A DNA stretch of 11,546 nucleotides from a virus (IMGVR_UViG_2703718868_000005), one strand, 5' to 3'. Positions 3,264 through 6,072 are shown, counted from the first letter of the stretch. The notes: generated from the letters alone by a model not told the origin. Made by a program: numbers and translations.

Positions 3264-3533
3264 TTACCTCCAGATGCGCTGCTGGAATGTGCGGGACGGA
3301 CGCGGTGGGCGTTCGGAATAAGGGAGCCTGACGGAGATTATCCAGTGACGACGATCGAAGCTGAGGGCTTTCTCAAACTCATATCCGCGCCTGCGGTAAC
3401 ACTGGATCAGCCATTCGGCCTGTTCTTCAGTGCATGGGGGATGCTGGAACCAGTCGGTTTTAAATACGTGCGAACACCGCCCTTGCCTACTGGCAAGGGC
3501 GGCAGAATTGTGCAATCTGCTATCGTGCGCCAT
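3264..3533 (-). CDS. Hypothetical protein with a possible CxH...HPPC metal-binding motif
   Basis: ATG at 3531-3533 with GGAG about 7 nt upstream. Stop abuts the start of the DUF968 gene, suggesting coupling. ORF-track frame extends to GTG at 3551. Confidence 0.5.
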   Translation of the reverse strand: MAHDSRLHNSAALASRQGRCSHVFKTDWFQHPPCTEEQAEWLIQCYRRRGYEFEKALSFDRRHWIISVRLPYSERPPRPSRTFQQRIWR

Positions 3534-3814: not shown

Positions 3815-3979
3815 TATCGCTTCTCTCGGACTATAACCATGAAAAGAGACGCATTTCACTCAGTAAATCTGAGGATTTTATGCGCAAGAACAATGACTTT
3901 TTCTGTCTGCCGTTTATACAATCTGAATTACGTCTGTTTTTTGAACACCGATAAATCAGCAAGCATTCTCAAATAAAGA

Positions 3980-4037
3980 TTGCCTCCATAGTCCACATGG
4001 TGTAACACTATGTGTTATATAAAATGCAGAGGCAGGT
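3980..4037 (+). promoter_or_regulatory. Putative promoter/operator of the type II TA operon
   Basis: TTGCCT -35-like element (3980-3985), TATAAA -10-like element near 4018-4023 and an imperfect inverted repeat GTAACAC-N3-GTGTTAT (4002-4018) lie just upstream of the toxin SD GAGG. Typical site for antitoxin autoregulation. Confidence 0.35.
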
Positions 4038-4410
4038 ATGCGAATTTTCAAAAACGCCTGGTTTGAACGTTTCGCCCGAAAACATCGGATTTCCGATAAA
4101 TCGCTGCGCAAAATCGTGGAACAGGCCGATAAGGGGGATCATATCCGCAAATTTGGGTAGTGGTGTCATTAAACAAAGATTAGCCCGAAGTGGTGGCGGA
4201 AAATCAGGCGGTTACCGGACAATAATTTTTTACCGCGTTGCAGAAAAAGCCTTTTTCATCTACGCATACGCAAAGAATGAACGAGAGAATATCACTGCTA
4301 TAGAGGAAAATGCTTTTCGAAAAGCCGCTCCCCATGTCCTCAATCTTACTGATGAACAGCTGGCACAATTGATTCAACAAGGCCAGTTCACGGAGGTACC
4401 CAATGAGTAA
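4038..4410 (+). pseudogene. RelE/ParE-superfamily (HigB-2-like) toxin gene, frameshifted at a G5 run (4133-4137)
   Basis: Frame from ATG 4038 gives MRIFKNAWFERFARKHRISDKSLRKIVEQADKG, then a TAG at 4158. The rest of the toxin (IISANLGSGVIKQRLARSGGGKSGGYRTIIFYR...FFIYAYAKNERENIT) continues in the +1 frame to the stop at 4408-4410. Removing one G restores a single ORF of about 123 aa. Confidence 0.7.
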
Positions 4411-4720
4411 AAATTACCGCAGTGATGCACTTGCATCTGTACATGAAATGATGGAGTCACTCCATGATATCGGTGCAATCACAAAACAAACTATGCGCGA
4501 ATTCGATGAAACTTGTCTTCAGCCTGCGCCGGTAATGTCTCCGGAAAGGATCCGTGCACTGCGAGAACGAGAGCATCTGTCTCAACCTGTTTTTGCCAGA
4601 TACCTCAACGTCAGTAAAAACCTGATATCAGACTGGGAACGAGGAGTGAAACGCCCGGGAGGTGCAGCTCTTCGGCTTCTTTCAGTTGTCGAGAAAAACG
4701 GGATCCAGGTAATATCCTGA
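4403..4720 (+). CDS. HTH-type antitoxin (HigA-2-like) partner of the upstream toxin
   Basis: 105 aa. ATG overlaps the toxin stop (ATGAGTAA) and SD GGAGG sits 6 nt upstream. Motifs SQPVFARYLNVS...DWERG...PGGAALRLL match antitoxins paired with HigB-2-type toxins. Confidence 0.85.
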   Translation: MSKNYRSDALASVHEMMESLHDIGAITKQTMREFDETCLQPAPVMSPERIRALREREHLSQPVFARYLNVSKNLISDWERGVKRPGGAALRLLSVVEKNGIQVIS

Positions 4721-4822
4721 TATTCTAATACAACAAAACCCGCCGAAGCAGGTTAAGTGCGGGTGCGTTGAGGATGCCTGACACATCAGAGGTGGCGAGG
4801 GATTTCTCCCTCGCCAGGTCTC

Positions 4823-4978
4823 TTACTCCTCAGGTTCGTAAGCTGTGAAGACAGCGACCTCCGTCTGGCCGGTTCGGATTCGTACCTCGCAGAGGTCTTT
4901 CCTCGTTACCAGTGCCGTCACTATGACGGTTAAACAGATGACAATCAGGGCGATTAACATCGCCTTTTGCTGCTTCAT
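4823..4978 (-). CDS. hokD: Hok-family type I membrane toxin (HokD/RelF-like)
   Basis: 51 aa, MKQQKAMLIALIVICLTVIVTALVTRKDLCEVRIRTGQTEVAVFTAYEPEE, matching HokD/RelF as I recall it. SD AAGGAG upstream. An in-frame upstream ATG at 5035 gives the 70-aa ORF-track frame, at the position of mok. Confidence 0.9.
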   Translation of the reverse strand: MKQQKAMLIALIVICLTVIVTALVTRKDLCEVRIRTGQTEVAVFTAYEPEE

Positions 4979-5026
4979 AGCCTGCTTCTCCTTGCCTTTC
5001 GGCACGTAAGAGGCTAACCTACATGT

Positions 5027-5095
5027 GCAAAGCATGAAATTGGCCTCAGATTAATGTTAAGCGTCCTGCAAGACGCGTAATGTTAACTGGGGCTT
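5027..5095 (+). ncRNA. Possible Sok-like antisense RNA opposite the hok leader (position approximate)
   Basis: Inferred from hok/sok locus architecture. Weak promoter-like TTGCCT-17-TAACCT at 4992-5020 and a hairpin GCGTC-CTGCAA-GACGC at 5061-5076 on the plus strand. Exact ends not determinable from sequence alone. Confidence 0.2.
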
Positions 5096-5249
5096 TTCTC
5101 TGTCTGCCTTACGGCGGCATGCCCGAGGCAGACAGCCTCAAGCACCCGCAGCAATTCTACTTAACTCTTCTTTCCCCGCAAATCATTTTATCCCCGATGG
5201 TAATGTTCTCCCGATATGGGAATTCCCATATCAAGGTTAACTCAATCGG

Positions 5250-5801
5250 TTAAAGCTCCATTAATTTTCCGGCCAGTTCATCTCGTGGCATTACCAACCA
5301 TCCGCGCGATTTAAGCAAAGCCAGGGCTTCTTCAACCGTCACCAGCTGGCCAGGCGCATCACTTCGGATGAAGGCGGTTTTATCGTCACGGATCGCCAGG
5401 TGAAAATCGATATTCATTTTTCCCATAGCCCGCTCTTTCTCGTACTGGTTGAAGTAACTGTCTTCGAGTTTTTCGAATACTTCCCACGCCTGATCGGTTT
5501 CGAGCATTTTTGCATGACGGGCTGCTCCGCGTTCTGTCCAGAGGATGAGAGTGCGGGTTTTGGGAGAAATTTTCACCTCATTTTGCGACTCGTTTAAAAC
5601 TAGTCGCAAATTTTTGAGCTCATCACCAACAGCTTTAAAGAAGTGTTTTCCCTCAATAAATCGAGATTTATTTTCATGGTGATTCTGCTGTATACGGATT
5701 GCTTCTGTTCCGTAAAGGCGGGCGAGTAACTCAGTTGTGATTACAGGAATCTGGTTATAAGTGACAGGGGAAAGGTTTTTGACAGTAACTTGAGTCGTCA
5801 T
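5250..5801 (-). CDS. ORF6N-domain (KilA-N/antirepressor-like) phage regulatory protein
   Basis: 183 aa. N-terminal motif IPVITTELLARLYGTEAIRIQQNHHENKSRFIEGKHFF and later LILWTERGAARHAKML resemble ORF6N antirepressor domains. SD GAGGG about 8 nt upstream of the ATG. Confidence 0.75.
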   Translation of the reverse strand: MTTQVTVKNLSPVTYNQIPVITTELLARLYGTEAIRIQQNHHENKSRFIEGKHFFKAVGDELKNLRLVLNESQNEVKISPKTRTLILWTERGAARHAKMLETDQAWEVFEKLEDSYFNQYEKERAMGKMNIDFHLAIRDDKTAFIRSDAPGQLVTVEEALALLKSRGWLVMPRDELAGKLMEL

Positions 5802-5962
5802 GATAACGCCCTCTGGTTGATGAATTTAACTATCACCACCTTCAGGTCTCAATCATCAGGTGGCGAGACGTACAGGGTTGAGACTACCGGATCAACCAAC
5901 CGGCCAGCCTTTCGGCTGCCCCATACGCCTCACCATAATTCAGATGTGCGTGCGCATACGAC

Positions 5963-5987
5963 AATAAAAAACACGCTCGCGGCGTGT
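5963..5987 (-). terminator. Rho-independent terminator ending the replication-side operon
   Basis: Minus strand reads ACACGC-CGCGA-GCGTGT followed by TTTTTATT. Confidence 0.6.
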
Positions 5988-6072
5988 GTCTGTCGCGGTT
6001 GAATATCCGGGGTCTCAATCCCGACGGTCAACTCGACCGTGCGGTGAATATAGCCCCGGATTAGTAATTACG

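Follow-up and report, generated by a model that had tools for sequence, protein, structure and literature searches.

The window analysed here, a viral DNA stretch of 11,546 nucleotides (nt) designated IMGVR_UViG_2703718868_000005, contains a higBA2-type toxin-antitoxin (TA) system of type II, in which a toxin gene of the Pfam family PF06296 precedes a gene for an antitoxin with an Xre-type helix-turn-helix (HTH) domain. Positions are counted along the whole window, and the locus was read in 3980-4760. The toxin gene is split between two reading frames by one extra G in a short G run (five Gs, or G5, in place of four, or G4). The extra G is a real, inherited allele, which has most likely left a dead toxin gene beside a live gene for the antitoxin, itself the presumed repressor. 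An earlier sequence-only reading of the window had offered three options for the split gene, namely an inactivated toxin with an orphaned antitoxin, slippage-dependent low-level expression of the toxin, and a sequencing error; the first of them is the best supported.

Layout of the split toxin gene and its antitoxin

The locus comprises the following elements.

4001-4019, no strand assigned: imperfect inverted repeat TGTAACAC-TAT-GTGTTATA with the perfect core TAACAC/GTGTTA, recognised by direct reading and conservation
4029-4032, + strand: Shine-Dalgarno motif GAGG of the toxin gene, read from the sequence, 5 nt upstream of the start codon ATG 4038
4038-4160, + strand: N-terminal toxin fragment of 40 amino acids (aa), consisting of native residues 1-33 (MRIFKNAWFERFARKHRISDKSLRKIVEQADKG) and the out-of-frame DHIRKFG, then the stop codon TAG 4158-4160
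4135-4410, + strand: C-terminal part of the toxin, read in the +1 frame, native residues 33/34-123, stop codon TAA 4408-4410
4012-4410, + strand: chimeric open reading frame (ORF) of 132 aa with a GTG start, 41 unrelated residues joined to toxin residues 33-123
4153-4410, + strand: ORF of 85 aa with the start codon TTG 4153, overlapping the TAG of the 40-aa fragment (TTGGGTAG)
4392-4396, + strand: Shine-Dalgarno motif GGAGG of the antitoxin gene, 6 nt upstream of its ATG
4403-4720, + strand: intact HigA-2-like antitoxin of 105 aa, with an N-terminal segment of ~44 residues and a C-terminal HTH_3 domain

The frameshift site is the homopolymer GGGGG at 4133-4137 (+ strand), directly after toxin codon 33. 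The +1 frame of the C-terminal part reads GIISANLGSGVIKQRLARSGGGKSGGYRTIIFYRVAEKAFFIYAYAKNERENIT... from 4135 onward, and its segments inside the 132-aa ORF include ...GIISANLGSGVIKQRLARSGGGKSGGYRTIIFYR...FFIYAYAKNERENIT.... Both the sequence and the ORF calls agree with the earlier proposal of a toxin that starts at ATG 4038 and is split, with its two parts joined at this G run. Removal of one G gives a contiguous toxin of 123 aa, close to the length predicted in that reading, and the repaired protein matches PF06296 (HigB-2/"PF_RelE") over model positions 1-120 of 120 with 161.3 bits (cutoff, 27). Without the repair, the 40-aa fragment matches positions 1-35 (39.9 bits, E 5.8e-10) and the 132-aa ORF positions 31-120 (113.7 bits, E 7.8e-33). 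As the two pieces match adjacent parts of one Pfam model, the frame arrangement is not a matter of chance; the extra G divides the PF06296 domain between two frames, and no single contiguous frame encodes the domain here.

The toxin and antitoxin genes lie in this order on the same strand, the former ending at 4410 and the latter starting at 4403. The sequence-only reading described the antitoxin as intact and start-stop coupled; the gene is indeed intact and its start overlaps the toxin stop, albeit by 8 nt (ATGAGTAA, 4403-4410) and not by the classic 4-nt ATGA. Likewise, the 132-aa chimera that it placed at an ATG at 4012 exists as an ORF, the start codon of which is GTG. An in-frame ATG at 4024 inside this ORF would give a 128-aa product. 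On inspection of the sequence, no Shine-Dalgarno motif was found upstream of GTG 4012, ATG 4024 or TTG 4153.

A one-base expansion from G4 to G5 after codon 33 has thrown the remaining toxin out of frame. Ribosomes starting at ATG 4038 would then yield a 40-residue peptide ending at TAG 4158, and the part with the catalytic residues and the beta-sheet core would be left with no credible start site of its own. An out-of-frame core that lacks a credible start would make the toxin gene a loss-of-function pseudogene, from which no active toxin is expected. The antitoxin, an unchanged protein with a strong ribosome-binding site of its own, is probably still made, and probably represses the operon promoter by binding to the conserved inverted repeat at 4001-4019.

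The family to which the toxin belongs is well defined. A database search with the repaired protein found 1418 relatives, with a length of 122-130 aa for most of the best 120 listed. An alignment of 13 homologues, which reach down to 59% identity and include proteins of Salmonella, Halomonas, purple sulfur bacteria and one cyanobacterium, is gap-free across the junction ...AE(K/Q)G(L/I)I(D/S)A(D/N)LG(G/S)GVIKQR.... PF06296 contains HigB-2 of Vibrio cholerae; its modules have the toxin-then-antitoxin order, and its members are ribosome-dependent mRNA endonucleases (PMC11980606). The closest solved structure to the toxin by sequence is V. cholerae HigB-2 (VcHigB2; E 4e-4). The earlier HigB-2-like label is thus supported by the PF06296 match together with HigB-2 and HigA-2 as the best solved-structure matches of toxin and antitoxin, respectively. 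Mutagenesis of VcHigB2 identified Arg51, Arg64, Tyr82 and Lys84 as important residues (PMC5416850). These align to R47, R60, Y77 and K79 of the toxin in the window, all four of which are located downstream of the frameshift. Across 40 homologues, no variation is seen at R60 and K79 and very little at R47; position 77 is mostly F, and an invariant Y75 is nearby. The most invariant motif of the family in the same homologues comprises R2, F4-R11 (RxFKNAWFER), F12, R14 and K15.

The intact allele was modelled with AlphaFold (AF2) at medium quality (mean pLDDT 69.2). Upstream of the frameshift the model has a strand (residues 2-6) and two helices (7-15 and 20-31), and downstream of it a low-confidence Gly-rich region (38-59), strands 60-67 and 70-78, and two C-terminal helices; the disordered beta2-beta3 loop of VcHigB2 aligns to residues 49-59. 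The top six Foldseek matches in the PDB were all VcHigB2, but were weak (probability up to 0.97, TM 0.36-0.50, best E 6e-3). With the break after residue 33, strand 1 and helices 1-2 are cut off from the catalytic sheet, and thus neither fragment would amount to a whole domain. No NCBIfam model covered the toxin, and a search for known defence systems with PADLOC gave no match to it. As judged from sequence comparison, the toxin locus is a homologue of the PF06296 family, but a pseudogene rather than a functional member.

The counterpart in V. cholerae, HigB-2/HigA-2 (VCA0468/VCA0469; PDB 5JA8, 5JAA, 8A0X), is also a toxin-first PF06296 module with an overlapping antitoxin gene. Besides the aligned catalytic residues, the two toxins share a Gly/Lys-rich beta2-beta3 loop. 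They differ in that their identity is ~25%, and the E. coli toxin is ~13 residues longer, is split by a frameshift and is known here from sequence alone; the V. cholerae module resides in a superintegron instead of a lambdoid prophage. Rts1 HigB/HigA and Escherichia coli K-12 RelE/RelB belong to the same RelE/ParE (BECR-fold) superfamily of ribosome-dependent mRNA endonucleases, and higBA of Rts1 is toxin-first as well (PMC11980606, PMC5416850). Nevertheless, Rts1 HigB and RelE are placed in other Pfam families (PF05015, PF05016), relBE is antitoxin-first, and neither gave a significant direct sequence match here.

The antitoxin carries an HTH_3 domain (PF01381) at residues 50-94 (32.3 bits; cutoff, 23). 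Its best solved-structure match is HigA-2 (5JAA; phmmer, E 6.7e-8 over residues 45-99), which has the same layout of an N-terminal extension, ~40 residues long, and a C-terminal HTH. The N-terminal segment of HigA-2 neutralises the toxin (PMC5416850); the 44-residue extension of the antitoxin in the window has no similarity to VcHigA2 residues 1-36 detectable by phmmer. The protein matches phrog_2104 end to end and is identical to WP_000042395.1, which elsewhere sits beside intact toxins. All matches to NCBIfam models were far under the cutoffs, and PADLOC gave generic HTH matches only. The GGAGG motif of its own should permit translation of the antitoxin uncoupled from the toxin frame. In 11 of the 53 G5 genomes described below (six fetched and five inferred from mismatch counts), 4392 G>A converts this motif to AGAGG; the substitution, synonymous in the toxin frame, might reduce translation of the antitoxin.

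The inverted repeat lies 19-37 nt upstream of the toxin start, with GTG 4012 inside it, and in an alignment it is nearly unchanged in 84%-identical alleles despite diverged flanks. It is a likely operator for the HTH antitoxin. An automated inverted-repeat finder did not report this repeat. A scan for sigma-70 promoters gave a sole 9/12 site, at 3893-3922, and none at the conserved repeat, a number equal to the shuffled expectation.

The G4 and G5 alleles among E. coli genomes

We searched 5,426 complete E. coli genomes, of which 168-169 carry the allele at ~95% identity or more. At least 113 complete genomes match an 80-nt G4 probe exactly, and 53, or about a third of the carriers, span an 81-nt G5 probe without a gap. 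A 316-nt probe confirmed G5 in 52 of the latter; MFDS1006657 ranked lower owing to extra mismatches. The G5 genomes came from the USA, Canada, Japan, China, Korea, Italy and Argentina, and those with a stated serotype are all non-O157 Shiga toxin-producing E. coli (O113:H21, O91, O104:H21, O22:H8, O178:H19 and O43). The G4 carriers include O157:H7, O26 and O145, and the serogroups named among the matches listed divide cleanly between the two states. In public contigs, the repaired 123-aa toxin sequence was found exactly on at least 1000, and so was each of the 40-aa and 85-aa fragment proteins.

Over 781 nt, the locus shows 100% identity to that of E. coli CFIAFB20190157 (NZ_CM143728.1), a food isolate from Canada, in which it is single-copy at the sensitivity of megablast. 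Intact G4 alleles in O157:H7, O26 and O145 genomes are 99.7% identical across the same length. This intact module of enterohaemorrhagic E. coli (WP_001217944.1 and WP_000042395.1) has an identical antitoxin and the same neighbours (hokD and small hypothetical genes), and differs from the window allele in carrying G4 and a contiguous 123-aa toxin. At the homologous position, G4 is present in a 95%-identical allele (JNEC-KY176) and G3 (CGGG or GGGA) in 84%-identical alleles, indicating that G5 is the derived state; the ancestral G4 that the sequence-only reading had suggested confirming in homologues is therefore upheld. All homologues of 59-85% identity are contiguous through the junction. Homologues naturally sharing the split arrangement would have spoken against a lesion, and the arrangement was found only in copies of the same allele with at least 99% identity, not in divergent homologues.

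G5 is not confined to a single background. An alignment of 1.48 kb from 13 copies places it on at least three haplotypes, distinguishable at 3399, 3405, 3738, 3949, 3999, 4106, 4121 and 4543. With the 95% allele as the reference and outgroup, the state of the G run fails the four-gamete test against 4106, 4121 and 4543. Such a failure would need either recombination among prophages or recurrent slippage, and recombination is the ordinary explanation in lambdoid prophages. In the assembly of strain ST130, two prophages ~175 kb apart each carry a copy of the module, intact with G4 in one and frameshifted with G5 in the other.

When the 53 G5 genomes are compared, the 273 nt downstream of the shift contain only two variable sites, namely the synonymous 4392 G>A and a singleton non-synonymous change. 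MFDS1006657, one of the G5 genomes, has 4217 G>A (CGG>CAG), which replaces R60 with Q. This residue is the equivalent of the catalytic Arg64 of VcHigB2, invariant in the 40 homologues. A single change of this kind is what relaxed constraint would produce, and can be taken as a hint.

Toxin loss is also seen in a sister allele with 84% identity. Its toxin is intact in many strains (123 aa on 654 contigs; WP_001217946.1), but is broken in two, at positions other than the G run. In O104:H4 C227-11, the sister toxin gene has two separate 1-nt deletions, aligned to ~4089 and ~4325 of the window, and in O10:H32 NMBU-W12E19 it is truncated beside an IS66-family tnpA gene. The antitoxin, WP_000042397.1, is intact in both strains. 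Counting G5, at least three independent toxin-inactivating events have taken place, and the antitoxin was retained each time. A Doc-family toxin gene adjoins this broken sister module.

Alternatives to toxin inactivation

Several points weigh against a dead toxin gene. The near-invariance of the post-shift region fits a recent origin of G5, yet leaves room for constraint on the C-terminal ORF; the ratio of non-synonymous to synonymous substitution rates (dN/dS) needs more variation than the two sites found in these 273 nt. The occurrence of G5 on several haplotypes could signify persistence, not decay. RefSeq treats the fragments as genuine coding sequences (CDSs), and confidence in the structural model is no more than medium (pLDDT 69). 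It is thus necessary to ask what else the extra G may represent. It is hardly credible that it is a sequencing or assembly error in a gene that is in truth an intact G4. Homopolymer indels are conceivable, as the NZ_CM143728.1 prophage has other genes annotated as frameshifted (those for RusA, a hypothetical protein, the portal, the major capsid protein and a tail protein), but 52 further complete genomes of unrelated projects and countries also have G5, which is found on several distinct single-nucleotide polymorphism haplotypes and coexists with G4 in the ST130 assembly. Many of the contigs with the fragment proteins, moreover, bear accessions in the style of draft assemblies. The option of a sequencing error in the earlier reading was consequently not borne out. 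If G5 is real, low-level full-length toxin might still be produced by +1 ribosomal slippage (tRNA-Gly on GGG-G) or by transcriptional slippage, and the run would act as an expression throttle. GGG G would permit +1 re-pairing in the P site, the product would equal the wild-type toxin, and the C-terminal ORF is open and nearly unchanged in the 53 genomes. As in prfB-type +1 frameshifting, a +1 shift restores the frame and a G-rich Shine-Dalgarno-like sequence is present at the site. Unlike prfB, there is no stop or hungry codon in the A site; GGG is followed in the 0 frame by GAU (Asp), which is neither rare nor a stop. The spacing of the Shine-Dalgarno-like AGGGGG is not stimulatory either, as it overlaps the shift site; the corresponding element of prfB is located 3 nt upstream of the shift site. 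The predicted RNA fold of 4120-4220 was no better than that of shuffled sequences (z = +0.56), leaving no stable downstream structure, and five Gs are too short for efficient slippage of RNA polymerase. The arrangement is unconserved, with no split homologue at 59-85% identity, and most carriers have plain G4 without a shift (at least 113 of ~169). We found no positive support for the slippage-dependent option in the sequence-only reading, and consider such expression quite improbable.

An active product could alternatively be made from the pieces themselves, i.e., the 85-aa protein by re-initiation from TTG 4153 at TAG 4158, the 128/132-aa chimera, or a non-covalent toxin of the 40-aa and 85-aa fragments. 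All four equivalents of the catalytic residues are in the C-terminal piece, TTGGGTAG supplies a start/stop overlap, RefSeq annotates the fragment ORFs as CDSs, and the break falls after model helix 20-31, just ahead of the low-confidence residues 38-59, to part of which (49-59) the VcHigB2 loop aligns. Against these stand the missing Shine-Dalgarno motifs at TTG 4153, GTG 4012 and ATG 4024, the location of GTG 4012 inside the putative operator/promoter block, the lack in these pieces of strand 1 and helices 1-2, which hold the most invariant family motif, and R60Q at the catalytic Arg in one G5 genome; on balance an active fragment seems very unlikely. We give an equally slim chance to reversible ON/OFF phase variation, in which G4 and G5 would interconvert repeatedly in prophage populations. 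The presence of G5 on at least three haplotypes and the four-gamete failure against 4106, 4121 and 4543 could stem from it, but free recombination of lambdoid prophages explains the haplotypes without recurrent slippage. Five Gs are well under the tract lengths of known contingency loci, no G3 or G6 was seen in the inspected copies of at least 95% identity, and the serogroups named among the listed matches divide cleanly by state. It may be speculated that the G4/G5 run is a recurrent, possibly reversible toxin-off switch, and that the orphan antitoxin is selected as an anti-addiction factor against superinfecting or co-resident prophages with an intact module; more rarely, a two-piece toxin might form again from the 40-aa and 85-aa pieces. 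Orphan antitoxins are reported to be highly abundant in a survey of 950 E. coli genomes, which proposed that they have anti-addiction or regulatory roles (PMC10790755). The several G5 haplotypes, the three toxin losses with an intact antitoxin and the dual copies in ST130 allow an anti-addiction switch, but none of them requires it, and this scenario is in our view improbable. Inactivation of the toxin gene with retention of the antitoxin is the interpretation that we adopt below.

Prophage setting, annotation and significance

The window covers the early and nin region of a lambdoid prophage. The genes are arranged in the order of a CI-like repressor, Cro, YdaT/CII-like, an O-like replication gene, a DnaC-like ATPase, DUF1627, an ORF6N antirepressor-like gene, hokD, the TA pair, two small genes, DUF968, RusA and Q. 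Beyond Q, the prophage in NZ_CM143728.1 is Stx-phage-like, with a methyltransferase, tRNA-Ile, tRNA-Arg, a SASA/NanS-p-type esterase and a lysis cassette; the interval from these tRNAs to the esterase has no stx annotation. The TA pair is opposite in strand to the phage early-right genes, and thus looks like an independently transcribed accessory cassette. A plasmid origin and a free-phage origin were considered and rejected. There was no megablast match in PLSDB, and only one phage record matched, with 79.7% identity; the module is known almost exclusively from chromosomal prophages.

Neighbouring elements on the other side of the antitoxin gene are as follows.

4823-4978 and 4973-5147, - strand: type I toxin gene hokD, immediately downstream of the antitoxin gene and convergent with it, with an Rfam sok match (RF01794, 117 bits) alongside
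5250-5801, - strand: ORF6N antirepressor-like gene
5856-5940, - strand: C4 antisense RNA (Rfam RF01695, 69 bits), just upstream of the ORF6N gene
5966-6040, - strand: isrK (Rfam RF01394, 51 bits), just upstream of the ORF6N gene

Type I and type II TA modules thus adjoin each other in the nin region of this prophage. The antitoxin gene and hokD are separated by a hairpin (4737-4754) that has a T-tail on the minus strand and probably terminates hok transcription. The set of C4, isrK and the ORF6N gene resembles the c4-ant cassette of P1/P7 or an isrK-type immunity and antirepressor cassette of Gifsy.

Other genes of the prophage are annotated as frameshifted. In NZ_CM143728.1, RefSeq flags the RusA gene (1839-2200 of the window, - strand) in this way; the region is 100% identical in STEC1587, and the lesion is shared. 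A hypothetical gene (392-926, - strand; ORFs 392-664 and 636-926) carries the same flag, and outside the window this prophage (NZ_CM143728.1, 380000-408700) has frameshift annotations on its portal, major capsid and one tail gene. The frameshifts in the structural genes mean either that the prophage is decaying or that the NZ_CM143728.1 assembly carries indel errors.

RefSeq annotates the G5 toxin in two ways. One is a single 132-aa 'RelE/ParE family toxin' (WP_231200891.1, WP_236940275.1 and WP_239909257.1), the first of which is the 132-aa CDS in the genome identical to the window; the other, used in many G5 genomes, is a pair of CDSs of 40 aa (WP_001365959.1) and 85 aa (WP_024173694.1). No pseudogene flag on the G5 toxin was found in the RefSeq records inspected. 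These incompatible CDS calls inflate toxin counts in surveys of TA systems and conceal orphan antitoxins.

Our literature search brought up no publication on this particular E. coli module. The family is a known one, its E. coli member is uncharacterised as far as the literature searched shows, and the lesion is of a common kind; the G5 allele is an ordinary case of toxin-gene decay. The weight of the finding is accordingly modest, and lies in a clean, population-scale example of the decay of a prophage TA module, in which the toxin goes first and the antitoxin is kept, with three independent lesions within a single gene family. The G4/G5 polymorphism could act as a small lineage marker for prophages. 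The two states also constitute matched natural alleles, with which the toxicity of the HigBA2-type module of E. coli, or its role in phage biology, may be probed.

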